From positions 1-39,908 of the forward strand of contig JBOHSQ010000028.1 of the NCBI GenBank assembly GCA_050733295.1: a DNA stretch of 39,908 nt. The letters run 5' to 3'. A program made the translations under genes and the position numbers. The notes beneath the pieces were generated by a model, which did no database searches, had not been told where the DNA came from, and was given only the letters and a program-made list of their open reading frames with translations. This stretch comes from Gemmatimonadales bacterium. Lineage in GTDB: Bacteria; Gemmatimonadota; Gemmatimonadetes; Gemmatimonadales; GWC2-71-9. Below are positions 664 through 29,209 of this stretch, one piece after another. Every line of letters begins with the position of its first letter. Positions within the stretch are counted from its first letter, which is position 1.

Positions 664-1341
664 TCAGACCAGCTCGTCTTCCTTCTTGCGCCGACGGATG
701 AAGCCCACGCCGCCCATCCCGGCAAGGCCGGTGGCGAGCAGGGTCATCGTGATCGGCTCAGGAATGACGGTTTCGGCGCACGCCGGATCAGGAGAGTCGC
801 CCGGCGGGCCAAACGTCGACGAACCCTCGTTCTCGATACCCAGCTTGGTGGAGCAGCCGTTAGGGCCGCTGATCCCGTGGATCGAGATGCCCAGGGCCGC
901 GAGTTCGGCGTCCGAGATCACGCCGGCGAAGGTGATCGTGAATGTCACCGACTCGCCGACCAGGAGGCCGTTGGTCGTCGGCGGGGCGACTGCCTCGGCG
1001 GCGATGTCGTGGCCGAGCGGGTTCAGCTCATTGCCGGGACCCTCGATCATGTCCGCGCCGGAGTTGTTCGAGGTGATGACCACGACGCCGCCGGCGGGCA
1101 GGTTGTAGACGCCCACGGCCGAGAAGATCGCGTCGGAGGTTCCGGGCAGCGCGCCGCCCAGGTTCACCACTGTGATGGTGATGACATTGGTGCCGCCGCC
1201 GGTCACCTCCACCGCGGCGCAGGTCGCGAACAACCCGCCGCCGCAGATCGGCGTGGTCAGGTCGCCCCAGTCCGCCCACGCGGGGGAGGCACTGGTGGCC
1301 GCGAGCACACCCGCCGCGGCCAGAGTCTTGAGGAGCTTCAT
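664..1341 (-). CDS. secreted PEP-CTERM sorting-domain protein
   Basis: Signal peptide MKLLKTLAAAGVLAATSASPAWA. The C-terminus VIPEPITMTLLATGLAGMGGVGFIRRRKK has a PEP motif, a hydrophobic helix and a basic cluster. GAGG lies about 10 nt upstream of the ATG. Confidence 0.85.
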   Translation of the reverse strand: MKLLKTLAAAGVLAATSASPAWADWGDLTTPICGGGLFATCAAVEVTGGGTNVITITVVNLGGALPGTSDAIFSAVGVYNLPAGGVVVITSNNSGADMIEGPGNELNPLGHDIAAEAVAPPTTNGLLVGESVTFTITFAGVISDAELAALGISIHGISGPNGCSTKLGIENEGSSTFGPPGDSPDPACAETVIPEPITMTLLATGLAGMGGVGFIRRRKKEDELV

Positions 1342-1360
1342 TGTGGTTTACCTCGCCTGT

Positions 1361-1921
1361 TCAGGGAACTGATTTCGTCATGGCGGTCGAATGCCGCCAC
1401 GCCTTCACGGACACAGTCACAAAAGCCAGTGGATACGCCACGGCCTGAAGCGCGGTTTTCGCGATGGCCTTCTTCAGCCCTCGCAGCACCACCGGGTCCT
1501 TCACCGCATTCAGTCCTTCGGCCGCACTCAACGCCCAGAACACCGCCAGGGCCAGGATCAGCGCGGTCAATACGATCAATACCCCCGCGACGAACTTCGG
1601 GATCCACCGGATGCCCCGGGCTATTCCTCCCGCGAGCATCAGCAGGAGGCCAAGCGCCGGCAACGGCATGAAGTTCAAGCTCTGCGAATAACTCGCGAAC
1701 TGGAACTCCGGCGAGTCGAAGTTGGCCGGGTACCAGGTCAGCGCGATGTCGAACAGACCCACCAGCGCGAAGACCGCCCCAGCCAAGCCCAACAGGTACC
1801 ATCCGAACTCGGGAGCGGGTGCCAGATACTTCTTCCGCTCCTCGGCCGTCTCCCGGACGAGAATCTGGGGACCGGTCATCGTGGATCCCCCGTCCGGGTG
1901 CAATTCACCGATGCTGGGCAA
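1361..1921 (-). CDS. hypothetical integral membrane protein (about four hydrophobic helices)
   Basis: Hydrophobic segments WYLLGLAGAVFALVGLF, LPALGLLLMLAGG, FVAGVLIVLTALILALAVFWAL and AVAYPLAFVTV. The longest ORF starts at TTG 1921. ATG 1879, preceded by GGGGGA, is the more likely start. The stop is 17 nt before the PEP-CTERM gene start, so the two look co-transcribed. Confidence 0.55.
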   Translation of the reverse strand: MPSIGELHPDGGSTMTGPQILVRETAEERKKYLAPAPEFGWYLLGLAGAVFALVGLFDIALTWYPANFDSPEFQFASYSQSLNFMPLPALGLLLMLAGGIARGIRWIPKFVAGVLIVLTALILALAVFWALSAAEGLNAVKDPVVLRGLKKAIAKTALQAVAYPLAFVTVSVKAWRHSTAMTKSVP

Positions 1922-1944
1922 GGCAGAATCCGGGCCACCTGCTA

Positions 1945-2153
1945 CCCCCTGGGTTCAACGGTATAAACCATTTTCCCACAATAACTTGGATGATCTCGAC
2001 AGTGGCCAGACAGCGCCTGTGTTGTAGCGCTGGTGCACCATCCGTTGAGGTACGGACCCCAAGTCGTCCACTCTGACCCGGGCGTGTGGCCGCAGCGCCA
2101 CGACACGGAACCACGTCGCGGCCAGCCGAGCGGGCACCTATATACTCCACGCA
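1945..2153. promoter_or_regulatory. divergent promoter region, locally AT-rich
   Basis: The only clearly AT-enriched stretch nearby is GGTATAAACCATTTTCCCACAATAACTTGGATGATC (about 1960-1995). TATACT sits at 2141-2146, 7 nt before ATG 2154, with no Shine-Dalgarno in between. Confidence 0.35.
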
Positions 2154-3422
2154 ATGTTCCAACGGAAGGCTGGACTCGCCGTCGCCCTGCTCGGAGCCGC
2201 CTTCGTCGGCGCACTCACCCTGGGTCCGCTTCCCGGTCGAGAAGCCCTGGTGCGGGCGACACCGCTGTGGTGCCTCGTGTGCGGGGAACTCGGCGGGGTC
2301 GACGTCCTCCTGAACGTCCTCCTCTTCGCTCCCCTGGGCATCGGGTTGGGGCTCCTCGGGGTGCGCCCGGGCCGGGCATTCCTGCTGGCCGCGGCGCTGA
2401 GCCTCTCGGTCGAGCTGCTGCAGCTGAAGGTCGTCGCGGGCCGTGACGCCAGCCTGAGCGACCTGCTCACCAACTCCGCCGGCGTCCTGCTCGGACATCG
2501 CCTGGGCCACAGCTGGCGGGGGTGGGTGCTTCCCGACCCCTCGACTGCCCGCCGGCTGGTGGCTGCCTGGGCAGTCACCTGGCTTGCGCTGGGGATGGGC
2601 ACCGCCGCGGCACTCCGCCCGGTTCCCACCCATGACCGGTGGTACGGCCAATGGGCGCCGGAGCTGGGGCACCTGGAAAAGTTCGAGGGCCGGGTGTGCG
2701 CCGTTCGCCTCGGTGATATCGCCCTTCCGTCCTGGCGGCTCACGGATTCGGTGGACTGGGCCCAGCGGCTGGTTTCGGACACCGTGCGGCTCCGCGCCGA
2801 TGCCAACCTCGGCCCTGCCACCCCCGGGCTCGCACCGATCGCGTCGATCTTCGACGAGCACCAGCGCGAGATCATGCTCCTGGGCCAATGGGGATCGGAT
2901 GCCGTCATCCGGGTGCGGATGACCCCCTCGCTCCTCCGCCTCCGGCCGTGGGCGATGCGCCTGCCGGGCGGTCTCGCCCAGCCCCCGGGCACCCCGGTGA
3001 GCATCGAGGCGGGAATCGAGGACCGCGCCTATGTGATCCGGGTCCATTCGGAAGGCGCCACGCGTGCGCGCGTGCTCCCCTTCTCTCCCCAGTGGACCTG
3101 GGCCGCGCTGCTCCCCGTGGACTACGCCTTCGGCCGCGAGACGGGCGTCGTCACCGCCCTCTGGCTGGCAGCGATGCTGTCACCCCTGGGCTGGTGGGCC
3201 GGGCGGGCTCGAGGGCGGATTCCGGTGCTGGCCGGTGTCGTGCTCGTCGCAGGCATTGCCGGCATCCGCATGTTGTTCGGGTTGAGCCCGGCGCCGCCGG
3301 CCGAGTGGATCGGGGCGCTCGGGGGACTTGGCGTGGGCCTGCTGCTGGCGCATGGCGTCCGGGTGCCCCACGTCGCAGCGATCGACCCGGCCGAGTTGAG
3401 AAACCCGGCAGTTGACCGTTAG
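2154..3422 (+). CDS. VanZ-like membrane protein with a long extra C-terminal region
   Basis: The N-terminal ~130 aa show the VanZ-like pattern (GGVDVLLNVLLFAPLGIGLGL ... SVELLQLKVVAGRDASLSDLLTNSAGVLLG). A ~190-aa non-hydrophobic middle region and C-terminal hydrophobic helices follow. TAG 3420-3422 lies 11 nt before the kinase start. Confidence 0.65.
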   Translation: MFQRKAGLAVALLGAAFVGALTLGPLPGREALVRATPLWCLVCGELGGVDVLLNVLLFAPLGIGLGLLGVRPGRAFLLAAALSLSVELLQLKVVAGRDASLSDLLTNSAGVLLGHRLGHSWRGWVLPDPSTARRLVAAWAVTWLALGMGTAAALRPVPTHDRWYGQWAPELGHLEKFEGRVCAVRLGDIALPSWRLTDSVDWAQRLVSDTVRLRADANLGPATPGLAPIASIFDEHQREIMLLGQWGSDAVIRVRMTPSLLRLRPWAMRLPGGLAQPPGTPVSIEAGIEDRAYVIRVHSEGATRARVLPFSPQWTWAALLPVDYAFGRETGVVTALWLAAMLSPLGWWAGRARGRIPVLAGVVLVAGIAGIRMLFGLSPAPPAEWIGALGGLGVGLLLAHGVRVPHVAAIDPAELRNPAVDR

Positions 3423-3433
3423 TTGCAGGCATC

Positions 3434-4636
3434 GTGCAGCCTTCCTCCCTCACGTTCCGCCAGCGAATCCTGCTCATCATCGTGCTCGTGGGTGCCGTGC
3501 CCACGGCGATCGCGATCGTGGGTTGGGCCATGACTCTCAAGGTCGGCAACCCGGCCGCCGCGACGCGTGCCGCCATCGAGCAGATCGGCAGTTCGGGCCG
3601 CACCTTGCTCGCCACGGTCGATACCACCGGGCTCACGGCGGCGGAGCGGGCCGCGCTCGACGCTCACGCGGCGCAGCTGAGCGAGGCCCTGGTCCGCTCC
3701 CGCCAGGCCGACACTTATGCGCAGTACTACTCGGCCGGCCTGACCATCACCGTGCTGGTGCTCGGTGCCCTGCTGGTCTATGCGTCGGTCCGCCTCGGCG
3801 GGCACCTCTCGCGGCAGCTGAGCCGGCCAATTGACGAGCTGGTGGGATGGACCAGGCACATCGAGCGGCACGAACCGCTTCCTCCCGACCTCCCACAGCG
3901 CGGCGCACCCGAATTCGCCGTGCTCCGGAGCGCGCTTCGGGACATGGCCTCGGGACTGGAGCAGGGCCGGGGCCGGGAGCTCGAAGCGGAGCGCCTGCGC
4001 GCGTTTCGTGAGATTGCGCGCCGGGTGGCGCATGAAATGAAGAATCCGCTCACTCCCATCCGGTTCGCGACTGTCGAGCTCGACCGAACCGCCACTTCCG
4101 GACAGCGCGAGGCGCTTGACGTGCTGCGTGCCGAGTCGCGAAGGCTCGAGGCCCTCGCACGCGACTTCACCGACCTCGGTCGGCTGCCCGAGGGGCCCGA
4201 ATCGGAAGTGGATGTGGGTGAGCTGCTGGCCGAGCTGGTGCGGACCTCGGTGCCCGCCGAGGTGGCGGCCAATGTGCGGGTAGAGCCCGGAGTGGCTCGC
4301 ATCACCGGACACTACGATCCCCTCCGGCGCGCGTTCTCCAACCTCCTGCGCAACGCGGTGGAGGCGATGAACGGCCGGGGCACGATCGACGTCCATGTCG
4401 CGCCCCGGCTGGCGGGCGGGGTCCGGATCCGGCTCCGGGACCACGGCCCCGGCATCCCGGCTGAGCTGGGCGACCGCGTGTTCGACCCCTACGTCACCAC
4501 CAAGGCCGAGGGCACCGGTCTCGGGCTGTCGCTCGTGCGCCAGACCTTCGATGCGCACGGCGGCAGGATCCGGCTCGAGCCGGCCCAGGGTGGCGGGGCC
4601 GCGTTCGTGATCGAGCTTCCGGCAAGGCGAGGCTGA
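3434..4636 (+). CDS. sensor histidine kinase (two TM helices, HAMP-like linker, HisKA, HATPase), NtrY/AtoS-like H-box
   Basis: GTG start. TM segments RILLIIVLVGAVPTAIAIVGWAM and LTITVLVLGALLVYASV. H-box FREIARRVAHEMKNPLTPIRF. N and G boxes LLRNAVEAM, RDHGPGIP and GTGLGLSLV. Confidence 0.9.
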   Translation: MQPSSLTFRQRILLIIVLVGAVPTAIAIVGWAMTLKVGNPAAATRAAIEQIGSSGRTLLATVDTTGLTAAERAALDAHAAQLSEALVRSRQADTYAQYYSAGLTITVLVLGALLVYASVRLGGHLSRQLSRPIDELVGWTRHIERHEPLPPDLPQRGAPEFAVLRSALRDMASGLEQGRGRELEAERLRAFREIARRVAHEMKNPLTPIRFATVELDRTATSGQREALDVLRAESRRLEALARDFTDLGRLPEGPESEVDVGELLAELVRTSVPAEVAANVRVEPGVARITGHYDPLRRAFSNLLRNAVEAMNGRGTIDVHVAPRLAGGVRIRLRDHGPGIPAELGDRVFDPYVTTKAEGTGLGLSLVRQTFDAHGGRIRLEPAQGGGAAFVIELPARRG

Positions 4637-4640
4637 ACGG

Positions 4641-6011
4641 ATGGCGGGAACCATCCTGATCGTCGACGATGAGCCCAACATCCGCCGCATGCTCGGCGCC
4701 CTGCTGCGCGCCGAGGGTTTCGCGGTACGTGAGGCGCCGTCCGGGCAGGCCGCGCTCCTCGAAGTGGACCGCGCAGAGCCTGACGCGATCTTCCTCGACC
4801 TCATGATGCCGCCTGGCCCGGATGGGCTCGCCACCCTCGGCTCCCTGGTCGAGCGCGGCGCCACCGTGCCGGTGATCATGATGAGCGGCCAGGCCCAGCT
4901 CGCCGATGCCGTCCAGGCCACCCGGCTGGGGGCGTTCCAGTTCATCGAGAAGCCGCTCACGCCCGAATCGGTGCTGGTGACGCTGAACGCCGCGCTCGAG
5001 CTCCAGCATGCCCGCGCCACCAGCCGCGCCCTGCACGAGCGGCTCAGCCCGCCTGCCGAGCTGGTGGGTCAGAGCGCCGCGATGAAGGCGGTGCGGGCTC
5101 TCGTGGCGCAGGTGGCCCCCACCGACGCGCGGGTGCTGGTGACCGGCGAGTCGGGGACCGGCAAGGAGCTGGTTGCCGCCGCCATCCACCGGGCCAGCCG
5201 ACGCGCCCGCGGTCCGTTCGTGGCGGTGAACTGCGCGGCGATCCCGCGCGACCTGGTGGAGAGCGAGCTGTTCGGCCACGAGCGCGGCGCCTTCACCGGC
5301 GCCACCGAGCGCCGGCTCGGCCGGCTCGACCTGGCCGACGGCGGCACCGCGCTTCTCGACGAGGTGGGCGACCTCGGCGCGGAGGCGCAGGCCAAGGTCC
5401 TGCGGGCCCTGGAGAGCGGCGAGATCCAGCGGGTCGGCGCCGAGACATCGCACCGGGTGGACGTGCGTGTCGTTGCGGCGACGAACCGGGACCTCGAGGC
5501 CGCAGTCCGCCAGGGCCAGTTCCGGGAGGATCTCTTCTACCGGCTGCACGTGTTCCCCATCCGGCTCCCGCCCTTGCGGGACCGCCTCGAAGACCTTCCC
5601 GGGCTCGCCGCCCACCTGGCCGGCCGTCTCCGACCGCGCCAGCCGCCGACATTCACGGCCTCGGCCCTGGTGGCGCTCGCCAGCTACCGCTGGCCCGGGA
5701 ACGTGCGAGAGCTGGCCAACGTGGTCGAGCGGCTGATGATCCTGGGCGGCGAGACGATCGACGAGGCGGACGTGGTCGGCGTTCTGCCCCGCACACGCGG
5801 CTCGCAGGACCACGCCGCGAGCCCGGTCGTCGACTTCTTCCCCGCCCTCGACGAGCGGTCGCTTCCCGAGGCGCTCGACGCCTACGAGCGGGACCTCATC
5901 GCCCGCGCCCTCGACCGGGCGCAGGGAAACGTGGCCGAAGCGGCGCGCTTCCTGAAGACCGACCGCGCCAACCTGTATCGGCGGATGCGCCGGCTCGGAA
6001 TCAGGCTGTGA
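4641..6011 (+). CDS. sigma54-dependent response regulator (receiver + AAA+ enhancer-binding domain + Fis-type HTH)
   Basis: Receiver ILIVDDEPNIR...IFLDLMMP...FIEKP. Walker A GESGTGKE, GAFTGA loop, LLDEVGDL, RWPGNVRELANVVER. C-terminal HTH GNVAEAARFLKTDRANLYRRMRRLGI. Confidence 0.93.
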   Translation: MAGTILIVDDEPNIRRMLGALLRAEGFAVREAPSGQAALLEVDRAEPDAIFLDLMMPPGPDGLATLGSLVERGATVPVIMMSGQAQLADAVQATRLGAFQFIEKPLTPESVLVTLNAALELQHARATSRALHERLSPPAELVGQSAAMKAVRALVAQVAPTDARVLVTGESGTGKELVAAAIHRASRRARGPFVAVNCAAIPRDLVESELFGHERGAFTGATERRLGRLDLADGGTALLDEVGDLGAEAQAKVLRALESGEIQRVGAETSHRVDVRVVAATNRDLEAAVRQGQFREDLFYRLHVFPIRLPPLRDRLEDLPGLAAHLAGRLRPRQPPTFTASALVALASYRWPGNVRELANVVERLMILGGETIDEADVVGVLPRTRGSQDHAASPVVDFFPALDERSLPEALDAYERDLIARALDRAQGNVAEAARFLKTDRANLYRRMRRLGIRL

Positions 6012-7756
6012 AACCGCGGTTCCTGCTTTCGCTGCGGGGCTTCGTCCTGGCAGGCACTGCTCCGCTTCACGGGCAGGACAGCCTCATCGTCCTCGATCCC
6101 GGGGCGCCGGCCGGCGACAGCGTGCTCGCCACCGGGCTTCCCGCGAACATCCTCCATGAGGTGCTCCTCCGCTTCAACGACTCGGCCACGACCCGGCTGA
6201 CCGGCGACTTCACCCTGCCGGCAGGTTCGCGGCTCGGGGGCGCTTTCGGTGCCCACCGTGGGACAATCCGGATCCATGGCACGGTGCAGGGACCCATCAC
6301 CGTCGTGAACGGGGATCTCGTGCTCGGCCCGACTGCGCGGGTAACGGGAGACATCCTGCTGGTCGGCGGCCGGCTCTCGCTCGCGGAGGGCGCGGTGGTG
6401 GAGCGCGGGACGCGGGAGTTCCCCGCCGAGGCGCCGGTCTCGCGGGGTTCCAACGGCACCCTCGTCGAGCGCGAGCCGGGGCGCTCGCTGGAGGACCTGG
6501 CCGCAGCGCAGGCGACATTCGCGAAGGGCGACACCCGCGCCACTCTGCGCCTCGCGACTGCGGGCACGTACAACCGGGTCGAGGGGCTGCCGATCGTGTT
6601 CGGCCCGCGGCTCGAATGGCAGCCCGCGCCCGACGTGTACACGCGATTCGACGCGATGGGCGTGCTCCGCACCGCAGGCAACGATGCCGACCTGCTCAGC
6701 GACCTCGGCTTCAACGGCCGGGCCGAGGCGCGCTTCGGCCGGCCCTGGCGGTTAAGGCTGGTGGGCGAGGGGTACAGCCGGGTCGAGTCGATTTCGGAGT
6801 ACGACCTCTCCGCCAGCGAAACCGGGTGGTACGCCATCCTGGCGCAGCGGGACTATCGCGACTACTTCGATGCCCGGGGCGGCGGGCTCACGGCGACCTT
6901 CGCGGTCGCACGCCAGCTCCGGATCGAGGCGGGGGGACGGCTGGAGCGGGAGCGCACGATTCTGGCCAACGATCCGTTCTCGCTCTTCAACAACGAGGAC
7001 AGCTGGCGGCCGAACCCGCTCATCGACGATGGCGAGTACCTCACCTGGCGGCTCGGCGTTGAAGTCGACACCCGTCCCAGCTCGGAGCTGCCGACGACCG
7101 GCGTCTTCGCCCGGGTGGGAGCCGAGTTCACCTCCGGGAGCGATGTGGCGCCGGTGGACCTGCCCACGACGGTCCGGGATCCGCTCCCCACCGATGGGTC
7201 GTACGCCTTCTCGCGTGCGAGCATGGACCTGCGCGGGTACTATCGCCTGGATCGGCGCCACACCCTGGGCGGCCGCTTCCTGGCCGACGGCTGGCTCGGG
7301 GGCGACCCGCTGTCCCTCCAGCGGCGTGTGGCACTGGGCGGCCCGGGGCTCCTGCCCGGGTATGCCTTCCGCGCCTTCGACTGCAGCGCAGAGAGCGGGC
7401 ACGTCGACCCGGCCAAACCCGCACTCTGCGACCGGATGATGCTCGCCCAGGGTGAGTTGAGGCGGCGATTCCGCCTCGGGCTCACGCATCGCATCGCGGA
7501 TGCGGAACGCGAGGGCGTGGACCGCGTGGTCGGCATCGAGGAAGCCGACTTCGTCGTCTTTGCCGACCTCGGCACGGCGTGGCTCGCCGGTGACGGCCCC
7601 GGACGAGTGCCGACCGACCGGGTCCCCAGCCTGTCCGACTGGCACGCCGACCTCGGCGTTGGTCTCGCGACGGGCGGCCTCGGGATCTACCTGGCGAAGG
7701 CGCTGGAGGAAGGCGAGCCGGTGCGGCTCAGCATCCGGCTCCGGCGCCGGTTCTAG
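6008..7756 (+). CDS. outer-membrane Omp85-type beta-barrel protein with N-terminal bactofilin-like repeat region
   Basis: The GTG start overlaps the regulator's stop (GTGA). Signal-like N-terminus MKPRFLLSLRGFVLAGTAPLHGQ. Repeat block GTIRIHGTVQGPITVVNGDLVLGPTARVTGDILLVGGRLSLAEGAVVERG. Barrel-type motifs ALGGPGLLPGYAFRAF and FADLGTAW. C-terminal ...SIRLRRRF. Confidence 0.72.
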   Translation: MKPRFLLSLRGFVLAGTAPLHGQDSLIVLDPGAPAGDSVLATGLPANILHEVLLRFNDSATTRLTGDFTLPAGSRLGGAFGAHRGTIRIHGTVQGPITVVNGDLVLGPTARVTGDILLVGGRLSLAEGAVVERGTREFPAEAPVSRGSNGTLVEREPGRSLEDLAAAQATFAKGDTRATLRLATAGTYNRVEGLPIVFGPRLEWQPAPDVYTRFDAMGVLRTAGNDADLLSDLGFNGRAEARFGRPWRLRLVGEGYSRVESISEYDLSASETGWYAILAQRDYRDYFDARGGGLTATFAVARQLRIEAGGRLERERTILANDPFSLFNNEDSWRPNPLIDDGEYLTWRLGVEVDTRPSSELPTTGVFARVGAEFTSGSDVAPVDLPTTVRDPLPTDGSYAFSRASMDLRGYYRLDRRHTLGGRFLADGWLGGDPLSLQRRVALGGPGLLPGYAFRAFDCSAESGHVDPAKPALCDRMMLAQGELRRRFRLGLTHRIADAEREGVDRVVGIEEADFVVFADLGTAWLAGDGPGRVPTDRVPSLSDWHADLGVGLATGGLGIYLAKALEEGEPVRLSIRLRRRF

Positions 7757-7761
7757 CAGCC

Positions 7762-8424
7762 GTGCGCGGCCTGCTGCTCCAGTCCACCACCGCGCTGCTA
7801 CTCGCCCTGGTTCCGGCAGCCGTCGGAAGGGCGGGGCTGGCGGCACAGGCCCGGCTCGAGGTCCGGCTCGCCCCGGATACCGGCGCCGTGGGCACCCGCG
7901 TTCCCGTCACCCGCGTGCGCGACCTCCTCGAGGACCCCCGCTGGCTCTCCGCCCTCGAATCGGGACTCCCGCTCCGGCTGCACTTCAGGCTGCAGCGCTG
8001 GCATTCGCGCGGGTCGTGGTTCGACGACGTGGAGCGGACGGTAGACTGGGACGTGGTGGTGCGGCGGGAGCCGCTTCGCGAGGAATACGTGGTGGAGACG
8101 ACACTCTCGGGGCGGCGGACCGTACGACGCTACCCCACCTCGGAGGCGCTCGAGGCGGCGCTCGGCTACTCCTACCTGGTGCGGATCGCCCCGCGCGAGC
8201 GCGGGACCTACTACTACCAGGTGTTGCTCGCGCTCACGACCCTATCGGATTCCGACCTGGCCGAGCTCGAGCGATTCCTTCGCGGGGACCTCGGTGGTGC
8301 GGCCGCCGGCCAGGACGGCGTGGGCGATGCGGTTGGCCGCGGTGCTCGGCGCCTGCTGCTTCGGCTGGCGGGATTGCCCAGCCTGAGGCTGGATGGAAGG
8401 AGCGCCAGGTTTGAAGTGAAGTGA
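7762..8424 (+). CDS. secreted hypothetical protein (possibly DUF4390-like, unverified)
   Basis: The GTG start lies 5 nt after the barrel gene's stop. Signal-like N-terminus MRGLLLQSTTALLLALVPAAVGRAGLAAQ. High GC3. No motif I can assign with confidence. Confidence 0.6.
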   Translation: MRGLLLQSTTALLLALVPAAVGRAGLAAQARLEVRLAPDTGAVGTRVPVTRVRDLLEDPRWLSALESGLPLRLHFRLQRWHSRGSWFDDVERTVDWDVVVRREPLREEYVVETTLSGRRTVRRYPTSEALEAALGYSYLVRIAPRERGTYYYQVLLALTTLSDSDLAELERFLRGDLGGAAAGQDGVGDAVGRGARRLLLRLAGLPSLRLDGRSARFEVK

Positions 8425-8469
8425 GGAGTGGAGGGTCGGAAGTGAGCAGGAAGGTGTGCAGTGTGCGAA

Positions 8470-8502
8470 GGGGGGCTCCGCGGATCACGGAGCCCCCCTT
8501 TT
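8470..8502. terminator. bidirectional intrinsic terminator between convergent operons
   Basis: GGGGGGCTCCG (8470-8480), loop CGGATCA, CGGAGCCCCCC (8488-8498), then TTTT (8499-8502). It lies between stop 8424 (+) and stop 8523 (-). Confidence 0.78.
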
Positions 8503-8522
8503 CGCTTCTCACTTCTCACCTT

Positions 8523-9071
8523 CTACCCGCCAAGGGCCCTCACTGCGGCGTGGCCGTAGAACAGCCGAATGTACTTGGCCTGGGTATCGGTCAGGCGCCG
8601 GACGGCCCAGGCGAGGTGCACGAAGTGCGGCTCGACTGGCTTCACCCGCGGATGCATCCCGCATTCCGCGGGCAGGTGGTTGCCCTTGCGCGTATTGCAG
8701 CTCGAGCAGGCGGTTACCACGTTGGACCACGCGTTTCCCCCGCCACGGCTCACCGGCACGAGGTGATCGCGCGTCAGGCATTCCCGCGTCCGCAGCTCGG
8801 CCTGATGCCGGCCGCAGTACTGGCAGCGGTACTCGTCCCGCGCGAAGAGGAAGGTGTTGGTGACCTGGCGGCGGAAGCGGCGGGGGACGTGCACGAAGCG
8901 GACGAGCCTGATGATGGCCGGTCTGGGTAGTGCCAGCCGCGCACTTCGGACCGTCTGGTCCCGCTCCGCCTCGACGATCTCCGCCTTCCCCTCGATGACG
9001 AGCCGCAGGGCGCGGCGCACCGGCACGAGGGTAAGCGGTTCAAACGAAGCGTTGAGTGCGAGGCAGCGCAC
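8523..9071 (-). CDS. HNH endonuclease (widespread LNASxEPL-type family)
   Basis: N-terminus MRCLALNASFEPLTLVPVRRAL. CQYCG ... LTRDHLVPVSRGG ... WSNVVTACSSCNTRKGN is a Cys4 / H-N-H core. Confidence 0.88.
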   Translation of the reverse strand: MRCLALNASFEPLTLVPVRRALRLVIEGKAEIVEAERDQTVRSARLALPRPAIIRLVRFVHVPRRFRRQVTNTFLFARDEYRCQYCGRHQAELRTRECLTRDHLVPVSRGGGNAWSNVVTACSSCNTRKGNHLPAECGMHPRVKPVEPHFVHLAWAVRRLTDTQAKYIRLFYGHAAVRALGG

Positions 9072-9152
9072 GCGGAGCCCCCGAATGGCCGTGACCGAAC
9101 TTGAGGAAGGCTAAGCCGGGAATGGACTTGCGGCAAGCGGGCGGAGGGGACG

Positions 9153-10415
9153 TCACCGGTTCGTGACGCCCGGGGCGGCCCAGGCTCGCCTGCCCCCGAT
9201 CCAGGTGCCGACGATGTCCGGCGGCCGGGACGAGAGCACCACCCCCTCCACCGACTCGGCGGCATCGCCACGAAAGCCGGGCGGCAAGCCGATCGCGGCC
9301 ACGTCGCCCCACCGACCCGGCGTGAGTGCACCGACCTCCTCCCCCAGCCCCAGCGCCACGGCGGCGCCGGCAGTGGCAAGGTGCAGGGCTTCACGCGCAT
9401 CGAGCGACGCCAGCTCCCTGGCGATCCGGGCCTCCGCAAGCAGGTCGAGCGCGCCCACGCTCGCCTCGGAATCGGTGCCGACCCCCACCGCGATCCCCGC
9501 GTCGAGGAGTGCCCGGAGCGGAGCGTCGCCGTGGCCGTGGCGCCGGTTGCTGAGCGGACAGTGAGCCACCGCCGCGCCGGCCGAGCGGATCGACTCGACG
9601 TCGGCCTCTCCGAGGCGCACGGCATGGATGCACAACGTGCGCGACCCGAGCGCGTCGTGCTCCGCGAGCCAGCCCACCGGTGTCCGCCCCGCGGCCGGCA
9701 GCGGAATCCCGCGCCTGCGCCACGCGTCGCCGAACCCGCCCGCGCCGTCGGCGAGCAACGCCGACTCCGCAGCCGATTCCGCGATGTGCACGGCGATCGG
9801 CAGGTCCCTCGAGCGCGCCAGGTCGGCGGTCGCGCGATAAAGCGCGCCTGATACGGTGTACGGGGCGTGGGGTGACACACCGAGCCGGGCGCGTGGAGTC
9901 TGGATCGGGAACTGCGCGTCCACCCGCGCGCACAGGGTCGCGAATTCGTCCCGGAGCTGGTCGGGGTGGGGACCGAACACCTCCTGGTAGGCGATCCCGC
10001 TGCCGCCCAGATCCGTCAGCGCGGCGAGGGTGGCGCCGCTGTCCCCCGTATCGGCCACGGTGGTGACGCCCGCCGCCCAGCACGCCCGCAGGCCCTCACG
10101 CGCGGCCGCGAGGAACTCCGCAGGCGACCGTTCGGCCTTGAGCCGGCGGATCACGGCGATCCAGGCGACGAAGTCCTGTTCCTCCGCCCGGCCCGCCATT
10201 CCGGTGAGCTCGAGGTGGGTGTGGGCATTCACCATGCCCGGGATGAGGGCGGTATTCGCGAACTGCAGCTCGGGCACCCCGGGCGGGTGCGGCACGTCCG
10301 CAGCGGCACCCGCCGCCTGGACTCGCCCATCCTCTCCGATGAGAATCGCGCCGCCCGCGATGGGCGGCGCGATCACCGGAACGAGCCAATCCGCGGTGAG
10401 GCGGAGTGAGGGCAT
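9153..10415 (-). CDS. amidohydrolase-family protein (chlorohydrolase/nucleobase deaminase-like)
   Basis: Metal-binding motifs [24 protein letters not shown] and GVGTDS. The ATG abuts the PBP1A stop (TAGATG at 10413-10418 on the minus strand). Confidence 0.85.
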
Positions 10416-12572
10416 CTAGTTCGTGGGCGGCAGCGGGGACGGCGTCCCGGCCCCGAGGAATGGCGAGTGGACCGGGCAGACCTCGATGGGCGCAGTGTTG
10501 GGCAGGAACCATTCGACCTGGCGAACGTCGCCCGGACAGAACGGGCCGGCGCGATAACCGGTCGAGGCGTCGGTCTCCTCGAACACCAGGCCTTCGGGCC
10601 GGGCCCAGCCACCGTGGACCGTCCGCCGCTCGTAGATCTCCTTCATCATCCTGGTCCAGGCCGGCGCGGCAAGCCGCCCGCCCTGCGCGTTGTTCATGAT
10701 CCGCTGGGGCTGGTCGAAGCCGATCCAGATCCCGCCCACCAGGTCGGGCGTGAACCCGATGAACCAGACGTCCTTGTAGTCGTTGGTGGTGCCGGTCTTG
10801 CCCCCAGCCGGCACCGTGAACCCCGCGCCGGTGACGGCCCGGTACGCCGTGCCCTTGCGCACGACGTCGCGAAGCGCGTCCCGGATGAGCCAGTTCTGGG
10901 CCGGGTCCATGACCAGCTCGGTCCGCACGTTCGGCTCCCAGAGGATCTTCCCGGTGCGGTCCTCGACCCGCGTCACGGAGTAGGGCTGGGCCCGGGTACC
11001 GTCGGTCGCGAATGCGGTGTAGCCCGCGATCATCTCGAGCGGGCTCACATCGACCGCGCCGATGTGGATCGAGGGCACCGGCGGGATCCGGGTGGCGGTG
11101 AGCCCGAACCGGATCGCTTCGCTGATGACCGACTGCTCGCCGATCTCCATCCCCAGCTTGATAGCCGGGATGTTCTGGGAGAGGTAGAGCGCCCTCCGCG
11201 CATTCATCGGGCCCTTGAACTCGAGGTCGTAGTTCTTGGGCTCCCAGGGCGGCTCGCCGGGCACCGCCTCGATGCTGATCGGCTCGTCCACCAGGATGTG
11301 GCTGAACGGCACTCCGGCGCGCAGGGCGGCCGAGTAGACGATCGGCTTGAAGGTCGAGCCCGCTTGCCGCCGGGCCTGCACCGCGCGGTTGAACTTGCTG
11401 TCGTTGAAGTCCCGGCCGCCCACCATGGCCAGGACCGCGCCGGTGCGCGCGTCAATCACCACCGCGAGGCCCTGGAGATACGGGCTCCGGCCGGTCTCGT
11501 CGGTGCGCTGGGCGTCCTCGCCGAGGCTGTCGATGTACTGCCGGAAGCTGCGATGGGGGAACGGGCCGTAATCCTTGCCCGCCTCGATGGCCTGGAGCTG
11601 CGCTTCCAGCGCGCGCTCCGCTGCCTGTTGCATGTCGAGGTCGATCGTGGTGTAGATCCGGTAGCCGCTCCGGTACAGGTCGCGGCCGAACCGCGCCTCG
11701 AGCTGCTGTCGCACGTATTCGACGAAGTACTCCGCCACCCCGGTGTAGTCGGACCGCGAGGACAGGGTGAGGGGGCGCGCCTTCCACCGTTCGGCATCCG
11801 CCTCAGTCAGGTATCCGGCGTCGGCGAGCAGCTCGAGGACGACGTTCCGCCGCCGGATGGCCCGCTGGGGATAGCGGCGCGGGTTGTAATAGGAGGGAGC
11901 CTTCGGCAGTGCCGCGAGAACTGCAGCTTCGGCAACGTCCAGGTCGCGCACCGACTTCCCGAAGTAGCGCTGGCTGGCGGCCTCGACCCCGAATGCCCGG
12001 TTGCCCAGGTCGATCTGGTTCAGGTACAGCTCGAGGATCTTTTGCTTGGGGTACCGGCGCTCGATGGCCCGGGCGACCTTGGCCTCGCGCAGCTTCCGGC
12101 CGATGGTGCGCTCCCGCCGGTTGATATCCTCCGGCCAGAGATTCCCGGCGAGCTGCATGGTGATGGTGGAGAACCCCTCCTCGAGGCCGAACGCCATCAC
12201 ATTGGCCTTCACGGCGCCGAGCACCCGCACCCAGTCCACCCCGCCGTGTTCGTAGAAGCGCTTGTCCTCGGTGGCGAGGAAGGCGGCAATGACCGCGGGA
12301 GACATTTCGCCGAGCGGCACTACCGTGCGCCGCTCGAGCCCCAGCTCCGTGATGAGGCGCCCGTCGGCGGCGTAGACCTTGGAGGTCTGGTCGGGGTCGT
12401 GCTCGTCGAGGCCGCCGATCCCGGGGCAGCGGCTGCCCGCGCAGGCGAAGGCCCAGGCCCCGCCGAGCAGCGCGAGTCCGAAGACGGCACAGGCAGCGAA
12501 AGCGATGAGGATGATGCGGCGGTGAGACGCACCTGCCCACCACTGGCGCAGGCGGTCGAGACGATCGGCCAT
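10416..12572 (-). CDS. mrcA: penicillin-binding protein 1A (bifunctional glycosyltransferase/transpeptidase)
   Basis: N-terminal TM anchor. GT51 motifs [23 protein letters not shown] and RKLREAKVA. Transpeptidase motifs GSTFKP and GKTGTTND. Confidence 0.93.
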
Positions 12573-17726: not shown

Positions 17727-18845
17727 TTGCGGAAACGTGGGGGAACGCGCCTTACGTTATTCCCATCGCGTCCGGCAGAGCAACCCGTGGATTCCAGCCA
17801 GCGCTTCTCGCTCGTTCTCGGTGGAGGCGGCCTCAAGGGGCTCGCCCACATCGGCGTGCTGCGCGCCCTGGAGGAGCGGGGGCGTTCTCCCGACGCCCTG
17901 GTGGGCACGAGCATCGGCGCGCTGGTGGCCGCGGGCTACGCGGCCGGCGTGCCGGTGGACGAGCTCTGGGAGCGCGCGCTTCTGGTGGAGCGCCGGCATG
18001 TCTTCCAGATCGCCCACGTCGACATGGCCTTCCGGCGGATGCTCTCCCCCGCCGTCTACCGCCGGGAGCCGCTCGAGTCGCTGGTCACGAGCCTGGTGGG
18101 GTCGCGCACCTTCAAGGAACTCGGCCGCCAGCTGGTGGTGAATACCGCGGACCTCAACTCGGGCATGCAGGTGCTCTGGGGCATGCCCGGCCTCGACGAC
18201 GTGGGCGTGGCCGACGCCGTGATCGCCTCGTGTGCGCTGCCGGGCATCTTCCCGCCGCGGGAGATCCGGGGTCGCTGGTACATGGACGGCGCCGTCATCG
18301 AGAGCCTGCCGATCCGCGCCGCGGGGGTCCTGACCGACGGCCCCGTCGTGGCGGTGGACCTCGGGGGCGGCGGGGCGCTGCGGGAGGGAATCGAACGGCA
18401 GGGGTTCGCGGCCACCTACGCCCGCGGATTCGAGATCGTCATGGGAACCCGGCTCGAGCTGCAGGCACTGACCTATCGCCGCCCGCCGGTCCTGCTGGTG
18501 GCCCCCCGCCTGGCCCACCTCTCGATGTTCGCCTTCGACGATACCGCCAACCTGCTGCAGGAGGGTTATCGCGCGACCCTGGAGGCGCTGGATCACTTCG
18601 ACGAACTGTTCGAACCGGGCGCCATCGGGCTCTACCCGCGCCGCCGCGTGATCCTGAGCGTGGACCGCGAGCACTGCATCGGGTGCCGCGCCTGCGTCGC
18701 CCGTGCGCCCGACATCTTCCAGATGGATTCGAGCGGCAAGGCGGTCGTGATCTCGCCCGAGCAGGTGTGGTCGCCGTTCGACGGCAGCTACGTCCGCAAC
18801 TGCCCGACCTGGGCCATCAAGGCGAAGCCGGCCCCGCCCCGCTAG
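17727..18845 (+). CDS. patatin-like phospholipase fused to a C-terminal single-cluster ferredoxin domain
   Basis: Patatin motifs LVLGGGGLKG (oxyanion), GTSIGA (GxSxG) and MDGAV (DGA/G Asp). The C-terminal VDREHCIGCRACVARAPDIF...VRNCPTWAI is CxxCxxC...CP. The start is uncertain: TTG 17727 or in-frame GTG 17787. Confidence 0.85.
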   Translation: MRKRGGTRLTLFPSRPAEQPVDSSQRFSLVLGGGGLKGLAHIGVLRALEERGRSPDALVGTSIGALVAAGYAAGVPVDELWERALLVERRHVFQIAHVDMAFRRMLSPAVYRREPLESLVTSLVGSRTFKELGRQLVVNTADLNSGMQVLWGMPGLDDVGVADAVIASCALPGIFPPREIRGRWYMDGAVIESLPIRAAGVLTDGPVVAVDLGGGGALREGIERQGFAATYARGFEIVMGTRLELQALTYRRPPVLLVAPRLAHLSMFAFDDTANLLQEGYRATLEALDHFDELFEPGAIGLYPRRRVILSVDREHCIGCRACVARAPDIFQMDSSGKAVVISPEQVWSPFDGSYVRNCPTWAIKAKPAPPR

Positions 18846-27643: not shown

Positions 27644-29209
27644 TCAACTCCTCCGTGGCGTGAGGAGTGCGATCGGCAGGATGACCTCCTCGGGGGAAAC
27701 GCCCCCGTGCAGGAATGCCCCGCGATACCGGGCCTGGTATTCCCGGAGCTTGGTGGGATAGACGAAGAAGCGGTCACCCGTGGCGAGCGCGAGGCGGGTC
27801 GTGGGAGTCCTGGCCGGGAGGCCGTACCCGCGCAGGTCGTCGACCACGATGGCGGCCTCGGGATCCTCGGGCCGCAGGTCCTCGCCGAACTTGTAGCGGA
27901 GATGGGAGGTCGCGTCGCGCCGGGCGTAGAGCGTCGCCGGCGTGTGGCAGTGGATCGAGCCGTGATCGGTGGTGAGGAGCACCGGGACGCGGCGCCGTTC
28001 GGCCTCACGCAGCGCCTGGCGCAACGGCGAGCGCTCGTACCATGTGCGGGTCAGGTTGCGAAGGGCCGAGGCGTCGCGCGCCACTTCGTACAGCGTGGAG
28101 TTCTCCGTGCGGCCGTGGGTGAGCTGGTCCACGAAGTTGAAGACAAGCGCGGTCACTCCGTTCCGGGCCAGATGCCCCGGCAGCCGGCGCAGCAGCTGTT
28201 CCCCGTCCGCCGAGGTGAAGACCTTCTCGTAGTGGACGGGAATGTCGCGCCCCGTGAGCTCCCGCAACTGCTCCGTCAGCAGCTCCGCCTCGAAGGCGTT
28301 GAGCCCGCCCTCCTCCTGGCCCCGCCACACTTCCGGCCGCCGCTCCGCCAGTTCCACCGGGAACCAGCCGCTGAAGATCGCATTCCGCGCGTAGGGCGTG
28401 GCGGTCGGAAGAATCGAGAGGTAGTGAGCGGTCTCGAGGTCGAACTGGCCGCCCACCAGCGGGCGAAGCATGGCCCACTGGTCGAGGCGGAGGCAGTCGA
28501 CCACGATGAGCAGCGCGCGGCCCTCGGCCTCGAGCACGGGACGGAGGAACTCGGCCCCGACGTCCACCGACAGTGGCGGGCGGTCGCCCCCGCTTGACCC
28601 CAGCCAGCGCGGGTAGTTCGCGGCGAGGAACCGGGCGAAATCCTGACGCAGTGAGACCTGCAGGGTCGCGAGCGCATCCTGGAGGCCCGGCTCGTCTGCG
28701 TGGCCGAGCCGCACCTCCCATTCGGCGAGCTCGCTCACGAGGTCGATCCATTCCCGCCAGCCGAGATCCCCGCCGCGCCGCGCCTCGAGATCGCGGAAGC
28801 GGGTCGCGAAGTCGCGCGAGAGCCGCTGCTGCCGGATCCGGTCTCCCTCCAGCAGCCTGGTGACGACTGACAGGATCTGCCGAGGGTTGACCGGCTTGAT
28901 GAGGTAGTCGGAGACCTCGACCCCGATGGCGTCGCGGAGTGTCGCGACCTCCTCGCTCTTCGTCACCATCACCACGGGGAGGGATTGGTCCGACTCGCGG
29001 ATCGCCCGGAAGATCTCGAGCCCCCGCCGCCCGGGCATGTGCTCGTCCAGCAGCACGATGCCGTAGGGCTGGCGCTGCAGCAGTGCCAGGGCGTCATCGC
29101 CGTTGGTGGCGCGCTCGACCGTGAAGCCCTGTTCCTCCAGGAAGAGGATCTGGGAGGTGAGGCTCTCGATCTCGTCATCGACCCAGAGAATGCTCTTCGG
29201 GCGGGGCAT
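27644..29209 (-). CDS. PorX-type response regulator: CheY-like receiver fused to a PglZ (alkaline-phosphatase superfamily) domain
   Basis: Receiver ILWVDDEIESL...IVLLDEHMPGRRG...VVMVTKSEE...DYLIKP. PglZ-type motifs LLIVVDCLRLDQW, LPTATPYARNAIFSG and LLTTDHGS. Confidence 0.88.
   Translation of the reverse strand: MPRPKSILWVDDEIESLTSQILFLEEQGFTVERATNGDDALALLQRQPYGIVLLDEHMPGRRGLEIFRAIRESDQSLPVVMVTKSEEVATLRDAIGVEVSDYLIKPVNPRQILSVVTRLLEGDRIRQQRLSRDFATRFRDLEARRGGDLGWREWIDLVSELAEWEVRLGHADEPGLQDALATLQVSLRQDFARFLAANYPRWLGSSGGDRPPLSVDVGAEFLRPVLEAEGRALLIVVDCLRLDQWAMLRPLVGGQFDLETAHYLSILPTATPYARNAIFSGWFPVELAERRPEVWRGQEEGGLNAFEAELLTEQLRELTGRDIPVHYEKVFTSADGEQLLRRLPGHLARNGVTALVFNFVDQLTHGRTENSTLYEVARDASALRNLTRTWYERSPLRQALREAERRRVPVLLTTDHGSIHCHTPATLYARRDATSHLRYKFGEDLRPEDPEAAIVVDDLRGYGLPARTPTTRLALATGDRFFVYPTKLREYQARYRGAFLHGGVSPEEVILPIALLTPRRS

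Follow-up and report, generated by a model that had tools for sequence, protein, structure and literature searches.

In Bordetella, the DUF4390 protein PlrP has been shown genetically to be the periplasmic third component of the NtrYX-type two-component system PlrSR (Wolber et al. 2026, PMC13001219). It restrains the phosphatase activity of the kinase PlrS, probably via the PDC domain, and DUF4390 genes were co-located with kinase/regulator pairs in 99 to 100% of the beta- and gamma-proteobacterial genomes examined (PMC13001219). A sigma-54 circuit governs proteobacterial PEP-CTERM genes, which have a sigma-54 promoter with an upstream motif and are dependent on PrsK/PrsR and RpoN (PMC1569441, PMC9850573); pepA is RpoN-dependent (PMC9850573), and the motif of Haft et al. 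(2006), which contains TTTACA, was found only in Proteobacteria (PMC1569441). The locus analyzed here recalls both systems. It lies in a 39,908-nt stretch from a Gemmatimonadales bacterium (GCA_050733295.1, contig JBOHSQ010000028.1, positions 1 to 39,908), which we call the window, and comprises five genes for a VanZ-domain protein (g1), a sensor histidine kinase (g2), a sigma-54-dependent response regulator (g3), a barrel of the Omp85 superfamily (g4), and a DUF4390 protein (g5), with an operon for an HpsJ-like protein and a PEP-CTERM protein divergent from them. The last four of the five genes are, with near certainty, a conserved unit specific to Gemmatimonadota, and we see an even chance that this core is a trans-envelope signaling system driving the divergent operon.

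Gene order, decisively so in distant lineages, indicates a unit. The barrel family has 1486 close homologues (301 representatives at 50% clustering, E <= 1e-30), its relatives occur in at least 557 GTDB species genomes, and every named relative is from Gemmatimonadota, a Gemmatirosa sp. among them. Gene order was compared over the best 80 loci, all from Gemmatimonadales, and separately in distant lineages (L089, L090, L091, and L118 to L120; L-numbers are labels of retrieved homologous loci). Wherever one of the best 80 loci extends far enough, it has the order kinase, regulator, barrel, DUF4390, and a DUF4390 gene lay within 5 kb of the kinase/regulator pair in every locus reaching far enough. 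The four genes also kept their order in the distant loci among unrelated flanking genes, which in L118, L119, and L120 are a gene for a type II secretion system-type ATPase upstream and racemase or acetyltransferase genes downstream. With gene starts assigned heuristically, the junction between the barrel and DUF4390 genes was no longer than 20 nt in 81 of 85 loci, 50 of them with an overlap of 1 or 4 nt, and the kinase and regulator genes shared a 4-nt overlap in 46 of 75; distances between g1 and g2, unreliable on this basis, were set aside. In L089 (5674-6407) and L090 (5135-6450), two small genes that match no family, encoding 94 and 150 amino acids (aa) in the former and 228 and 210 aa in the latter, stand between kinase and regulator.

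The initial annotation had proposed an envelope-spanning module of five genes. An operon-like, conserved module was indeed found, and four of its genes are kept together in distant lineages, but the VanZ gene is variable and absent from those lineages, leaving a conserved unit of four. A g1 homologue exists in 49 loci. Of about 63 close loci with enough upstream sequence to be evaluated, about 14 lack one and have unrelated genes in its place, and all 8 distant loci that reach upstream are likewise without it. Where present, it adjoins hpsJ in L004, L092, L093, L095, and L114. We conclude that g1 is a lineage-specific accessory that travels with the HpsJ/PEP-CTERM genes and lies outside the conserved core. 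Its product matches Pfam VanZ over aa 51 to 115 (42.8 bits; cut-off, 30.1), with no match in the remaining ~300 aa, and hydropathy describes a polytopic inner membrane protein whose N-terminal VanZ domain and C-terminal transmembrane segments flank a stretch of ~170 aa, probably extracytoplasmic. A TATATAC sequence (window 2139-2153) lies 8 nt ahead of the g1 ATG, 7 nt ahead of it in L004, and also near the g1 start in L092, a hint of a -10 box and of leaderless transcription of g1; an Escherichia coli-type promoter scan of positions 1300 to 9200 returned zero sigma-70 sites.

Like PlrP, PlrS, and PlrR, the core joins a DUF4390 protein, here probably exported, to an HExxN membrane kinase and an NtrC-family regulator through overlapping or near-overlapping gene junctions. 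The proteobacterial order, in contrast, is rsmB, DUF4390, kinase, regulator, while in the Gemmatimonadota module it is kinase, regulator, barrel, DUF4390, and the gene for an Omp85-type barrel always stands between those for the regulator and the DUF4390 protein. The initial annotation knew of no characterized system with this composition. For the kinase-regulator-DUF4390 core a relative does exist, namely, PlrSR-PlrP, but the barrel partner is without a characterized relative.

The kinase departs from PlrS in its input region. Two transmembrane segments (aa 12 to 30 and 101 to 119) enclose a periplasmic loop of only ~70 aa and are followed by HAMP, DHp, and catalytic ATP-binding domains (Pfam HAMP, weakly, HisKA, and HATPase_c); Pfam and hydropathy revealed zero PAS, NtrY_N, or PDC-sized domains, so that g2 differs from PlrS in lacking both the periplasmic PDC domain and PAS. 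Its H-box, HEMKNPLTPI in the translation, is of the HExxN type found in bifunctional kinase/phosphatases, PlrS having HEIKN. In NCBIfam, g2 is closest to the C-terminal halves of AtoS and ZraS. The earlier label of an NtrY-like kinase is thus apt for the H-box but not for the remaining architecture.

The regulator has the receiver, AAA+, and Fis-type helix-turn-helix (HTH) domains originally assigned to it: Response_reg (PF00072; 92.3 bits), Sigma54_activat (PF00158; 233.5 bits), and HTH_8 (PF02954; 37.7 bits), with AAA_lid_14 in addition, and its translation shows the receiver Asp, Walker A GESGTGKE, Walker B LLDEVG, and GAFTGA. Its top models are NtrC, AtoC, and NtrX, all under their equivalog cut-offs. 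Brucella NtrX can be aligned with g3 from end to end, and because g3 keeps GAFTGA at the contact loop where NtrX has a deletion, it is a genuine sigma-54 activator, a further difference from PlrSR-PlrP. Among the window proteins scanned with Pfam, it is the only one. In two independent Gemmatimonadaceae assemblies, regulator and barrel occupy one in-frame open reading frame (ORF) (P0335, 954 aa, in L091 at 8001-10865, and P0321, 910 aa), the barrels here being without a beta-helix domain. A fusion polypeptide was considered and is unlikely, as a Met inside the regulator-terminal RRM(R/K)RLG starts a typical signal peptide; the continuous frame probably reflects an internal start rather than a working fusion.

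For g5 itself, the DUF4390 profile (PF14334) gives 24.0 bits, just below the cut-off of 27, and at the family level (E <= 0.001) it matches 39 of 40 aligned members, at best with 3e-10. Precomputed DUF4390 matches exist for the neighbors in L001, L003, L089, and L118. These matches bear out the suggestion, made from the sequence at the outset, that gene 5 might be the DUF4390 partner known from NtrY/NtrX-type pairs. All homologues have a hydrophobic N-terminus followed by an A-x-A/AQ-type site, and the family alignment contains no lipobox. The structural model (predicted local distance difference test [pLDDT] score, 83.4) folds into a curved beta-sheet and then two highly conserved C-terminal helices, an extension that sets g5 apart from the PlrP system. 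A Foldseek comparison of this model with the PDB returned only meaningless low-TM matches (FMO protein and LolA; TM < 0.25).

The barrel is borderline by Pfam when taken alone, at 23.5 bits for Omp85 (cut-off, 24) and 20.7 for Bactofilin (cut-off, 27.9), and in the family the former profile matches 37 of 39 homologues and the latter, at E <= 0.001, 10 of 39. An AlphaFold2 model of moderate quality (pLDDT, 71.5) predicts a signal peptide, an N-terminal peptide that is disordered though invariant in sequence, a beta-helix (about aa 61 to 154), and a barrel at aa 166 to 578 that ends in Phe. Foldseek placed BamA, TamA, and Sam50 first (E ~1e-8) among 115 PDB matches at E <= 0.001, and TM-scores against barrel-only targets reached 0.66. 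Besides these matches, g4 shares with the Omp85 superfamily (BamA, TamA, TpsB, and Sam50) a C-terminal aromatic residue and a long loop reading GG...PGY where Omp85 proteins carry GG...(V/I)RG(Y/F). It differs from them in the loop itself, where LGG...LPGY replaces the Arg of VRGY/F and two invariant Cys residues occur; in the embedding of its gene in a signaling operon; and in having the beta-helix and the conserved N-terminal peptide instead of POTRA domains. No POTRA-family Pfam match was found in g4 or its homologues, and in the model the beta-helix occupies the POTRA position. The missing POTRA domains rule out that g4 is BamA or TamA. Since a signal peptide precedes it, the bactofilin-like domain is probably periplasmic, and it resembles bactofilin (PF04519) in its beta-helix fold, not in the cytoplasmic polymer-forming role. 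The original description of gene 4 as an Omp85-type barrel is supported; the protein carries a bactofilin-like beta-helix and lies outside the characterized BAM and TAM machinery. A literature search for Omp85 with bactofilin, or for a barrel partner of this kind, found nothing, and tblastn of g4 and g5 against plasmids gave no match.

Where the initial annotation saw no sigma-54 promoter in the window and looked for the regulon elsewhere, the comparison of loci leads to the opposite view: a conserved -24/-12 element and a dyad lie between g1 and the hpsJ-like gene. The -24/-12 element is 57 nt upstream of the hpsJ-like ATG. L001, L003, L004, and the majority of 26 metagenomic hpsJ loci have TGGCCCR-N5-TGC equally far upstream, with flanks that are unalignable. 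In 2.73 Mb of related DNA, over which all such counts were made, the strict pattern occurs 45 times, 20 of them at a constant position ahead of hpsJ-like genes, so that 20 of 36 such genes have it versus ~0.06 expected by chance. The element is unique or nearly unique in the window; the general pattern TGGCAC-N5-TTGC with up to two mismatches had 22 matches over the window versus 35 expected and is uninformative alone. The dyad has the consensus TGTTGTGG-N5-CCACAACA, is unique in the window (0.01 expected), and ends 82 nt upstream of the -24/-12 element. Matches to TGNTG-N9-HACAACA are sites 82 to 94 nt upstream of an hpsJ -24/-12 element in 23 of 23 cases, a count that includes palindromic opposite-strand readings and uses a pattern derived from the same upstream regions. 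Read from sequence, the two putative elements are arranged in the classical manner of enhancer-dependent promoters. In the window, L001, L003, L004, L092, L093, L095, and L113, the hpsJ unit adjoins the module or is at most 5 kb away. Tandem HpsJ-like paralogues are frequent (L001 291-1489, L103, L104, L107 to L111, and L113), and in these the dyad and sigma-54 promoter fall between the copies, so only the downstream copy has them.

The HpsJ-like protein has 172 aa from the ATG at 1879, a start picked by alignment of homologues, and three hydrophobic segments. It matches the NCBIfam HpsJ_fam and cyanoexosortase-A-associated HpsJ-like models weakly, below their cut-offs, and its homologues in L004 and L001 have a precomputed Pfam HpsJ match; the literature on HpsJ yielded passing mentions only. 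Beginning 20 nt downstream, the second gene of the operon encodes a protein with the C-terminus VIPEPITMTLLATGLAGMGGVGFIRRRKK, which scores 18 bits against TIGR02595 PEP_CTERM (cut-off, 16) and shows the PEP-CTERM layout of a C-terminal PEP motif, transmembrane helix, and basic tail. The same HpsJ-like and PEP-CTERM pair is found in L001, L003, L004, L092 to L094, L096, L098, and L114. No exosortase turned up among those window proteins that were scanned.

In its output, the module thus resembles PrsK/PrsR/PrsT, with a sigma-54 two-component system near genes for exosortase substrates whose -24/-12 promoter is accompanied by an upstream motif. The resemblance has limits. The upstream site here is the dyad, the promoter precedes the HpsJ-like gene with the PEP-CTERM gene in second place, the module contains no gene for a PrsT-like TPR lipoprotein, and because g2 and g3 fail the PrsK and PrsR cut-offs, we treat the module as an analogue of PrsKR and not as a member. 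A paralogous set of kinase, sigma-54 regulator, and REC-GGDEF protein recurs in L114 (4718-12339) and L091 (11673-15212). The L091 set follows closely after the module; the L114 set stands beside a VanZ/HpsJ/PEP-CTERM trio with a different upstream sequence and with neither a barrel nor a DUF4390 gene. This different sequence fits regulator-specific sites, and it also shows that paralogues exist.

Features of the module and of the divergent operon, with the evidence for each
Feature	Window position	Strand	Basis
PEP-CTERM protein gene, second in divergent operon	664..1341	-	TIGR02595, C-terminus
HpsJ-like small membrane protein gene, first in divergent operon	1361..1879	-	weak HpsJ matches, hydropathy
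Putative sigma-54 -24/-12 element TGGCCCGGATTCTGC	1923..1937	-	cross-locus comparison
Candidate upstream activator site TGGTGCACCAGCGCTACAACA	2020..2040	-	cross-locus dyad
g1, VanZ-domain gene	2154..3422	+	ORF, Pfam
g2, sensor histidine kinase	3434..4636	+	ORF, Pfam, hydropathy
g3, sigma-54-dependent response regulator	4641..6011	+	ORF, Pfam, alignment with Brucella NtrX
g4, Omp85-superfamily barrel	6008..7756	+	ORF, Pfam, AlphaFold2, Foldseek
g5, DUF4390 protein	7762..8424	+	ORF, family-level Pfam
Intrinsic-terminator-like hairpin closing the module	8470..8502	+	folding energy

The five ORFs, their junctions (an 11-nt spacer, a 4-nt spacer, the GTGA overlap at 6008-6011, and a 5-nt spacer), and the terminal hairpin were all reproduced as first annotated, and profile searches of the five proteins confirmed every domain named then, including HisKA and HATPase_c in the kinase. 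At 71% G+C spurious ORFs are abundant, and all five ORFs have the codon bias of real genes (GC3, 0.85 to 0.91; GC2, 0.49 to 0.54). The hairpin, GGGGGGCTCCG-N7-CGGAGCCCCCC followed by TTTTCGCTTCT, has a folding energy of -33.9 kcal/mol (z = -5.2; 0 of 200 shuffles equally stable) and sits between the convergent g5 and HNH genes; a consensus terminator scan of positions 1300 to 9200 did not list it and gave a single weak, chance-level site within g4. Rfam and tRNA scans of the window gave no match. The HNH endonuclease gene (8523-9071, minus strand) is the most conserved gene of the neighborhood, with 78 to 95% identity where the barrel has only ~50%, and a sigma-54-like motif lies 73 to 107 nt upstream of it in 8 of 80 loci.

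Operon structure is not the same in every lineage. In loci with a gap between the regulator and barrel genes, a GG-N10-GC element appears ~40 to 47 nt upstream of the barrel start: in L118 (8940-8954) it is a perfect TGGCAC-N5-TTGC, TGGCACATTTCTTGC, 46 nt upstream of the barrel gene, and weaker versions occupy the same place in L086, L089, and L090. In L001 a 46-nt perfect palindrome (9890-9940) lies between the two genes. Operon structure therefore differs between lineages, and, judging from these motifs, the barrel-DUF4390 pair may itself be under sigma-54 control in some of them. Such control is compatible with feedback and equally with a role of the pair as the output of the system.

These data lead us to a model in which the DUF4390 protein would act on the periplasmic face of the kinase and, by analogy with PlrP and PlrS, set its balance of kinase and phosphatase activity. 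The barrel would bind or sequester the DUF4390 protein via its periplasmic N-terminal peptide and beta-helix, a partnership that we infer because the two genes are invariably adjacent and translationally coupled. The state of the outer membrane could thereby be relayed to the kinase with a logic like that of RcsF. In the Rcs pathway, RcsF held by BamA and outer membrane proteins relays outer membrane state. The likeness is conceptual only, in that access of an envelope signaling protein to its inner membrane partner would hinge on an Omp85 or outer membrane protein barrel; there is no homology, the DUF4390 proteins here have no lipobox, and a classical kinase with a sigma-54 activator takes the place of a phosphorelay. 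To judge from position, phosphorylated g3 may bind the dyad and activate the sigma-54 promoter, which would drive the HpsJ-like/PEP-CTERM operon and so the production of exosortase-linked cell surface proteins. The barrel-DUF4390 pair is probably a further target of the regulator in some lineages. We rate the individual contacts and the assignment of the target each as plausible, at best an even proposition and in part rather less than that. The full chain, with the barrel as an outer membrane sensor that holds the DUF4390 protein and so tunes kinase balance and sigma-54-dependent HpsJ-like/PEP-CTERM expression, is offered more tentatively.

Several observations weigh against this model. The putative protein-protein contacts are proposed from adjacency, coupling, and the analogy with PlrP, and in PlrSR the supposed contact of PlrP is a PDC domain, for which the kinase here has only the ~70-aa loop; the PlrP mechanism can therefore not be transferred unchanged. 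The dyad is assigned to g3 by proximity, Gemmatimonadota carry paralogous sigma-54 regulators (L091 and L114), and the dyad was not found in the distant-lineage loci; its pattern, moreover, has the circular origin mentioned with the counts. In L087 (81-8608) and L088, the barrel gene is followed not by a DUF4390 gene but by an 84-aa ORF and a resistance-nodulation-division efflux operon, the L087 contig beginning at the barrel gene. Among close relatives, finally, the HNH, amidohydrolase, and PBP1A genes downstream are just as syntenic as the module, and since the whole neighborhood is syntenic there, close-relative synteny is weak evidence alone. Taken to its end, this last point would make the adjacency of the two-component system to the barrel and DUF4390 genes mere inherited synteny with no functional link. 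We find that hardly credible: the four genes remain a block even where all their flanking genes differ, their junctions overlap or are very short, and proteobacterial DUF4390 genes are found with a kinase/regulator pair with the near-universal frequency cited above.

A more serious contender, though still an unlikely one in our estimate, is that the barrel and DUF4390 protein are outputs, forming an envelope assembly or export device, for instance for exosortase-processed PEP-CTERM proteins or polysaccharide, and that the two-component system only switches on their synthesis. Omp85 proteins are typically insertases or translocators, the neighboring genes are rich in polysaccharide and PEP-CTERM functions, the sigma-54-type elements ahead of the barrel in L118, L086, L089, and L090 would suit such a device, and the L001 palindrome suggests separate transcripts. 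In the window lineage, however, the GTGA overlap with the regulator gene leaves the barrel gene no promoter region of its own; g4 has no POTRA domain for substrate handling; the barrel stays by the two-component system in loci without nearby PEP-CTERM or HpsJ genes; and the sole DUF4390 protein with a studied function acts on a kinase rather than in export (PMC13001219). Membership in known systems fares worse. That the module is the Gemmatimonadota orthologue of NtrYX or PlrSR-PlrP, serving the same redox, nitrogen, or micro-oxic adaptation with the barrel as an unrelated passenger, is quite improbable. The DUF4390 gene beside an HExxN kinase and an NtrC/NtrX-like regulator, the NtrX score of 391.7 bits, and the full-length Brucella alignment speak for it, but the cut-offs are 600 for NtrX and 558.6 for NtrC, the kinase is without NtrY_N, PAS, and PDC, the regulator has the GAFTGA that NtrX lacks, the gene order is another one with no rsmB, and the barrel is translationally coupled to the DUF4390 gene in nearly all loci. 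Curated cut-offs and architecture together rule out NtrY/NtrX membership of g2 and g3. Least of all does the module seem to belong to the PrsK/PrsR/PrsT system proper, a very remote prospect even though a sigma-54 regulator and kinase adjoin a PEP-CTERM gene with a sigma-54 promoter and upstream motif, as in the cases of Haft et al. The regulator reaches 368.3 bits against 502.6 (TIGR02915) and the kinase 85.1 against 300 (TIGR02916), so that PrsK/PrsR membership already fails at the curated family thresholds; a PrsT-like TPR lipoprotein gene is missing, and the dyad differs from the TTTACA-containing proteobacterial motif.

Two further genes in the window have unusual domain combinations. One (27644-29209, minus strand) fuses a response regulator receiver to a PglZ domain and adjoins genes for an ABC exporter and glycosyltransferases (GT4, GT9, and GT87). 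The other (17727-18845, plus strand) joins a patatin-like phospholipase domain to a single-cluster 4Fe-4S ferredoxin domain at the C-terminus in one ORF as called, an unusual pairing that possibly represents two merged genes.

The core, then, relates to PlrSRP and its output logic resembles PrsKR, which makes this not a categorically new system. New are the POTRA-less Omp85 barrel, obligately partnered with a sigma-54 two-component system throughout a phylum, and the pair of cis-elements ahead of the HpsJ-like/PEP-CTERM genes. The link of DUF4390 proteins to two-component signaling dates from 2026 and was confined to beta- and gamma-proteobacteria; the module extends this partnership to another phylum, and its different kinase input domain and true sigma-54 activator widen the question of what the DUF4390 protein contacts. 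The promoter and dyad provide the first testable cis-element for exosortase-linked genes outside Proteobacteria, a gap listed by Haft et al. (2006). Hundreds of species have a POTRA-less Omp85 barrel fixed in a signaling operon, a use of this fold not described before, and, if the model is true, the sensor barrel pathway would be the non-proteobacterial counterpart of both PlrSRP and PrsKRT. It would also suggest in concrete terms how the Gemmatimonadota, a phylum abundant in soil but little studied, may monitor their outer membrane.

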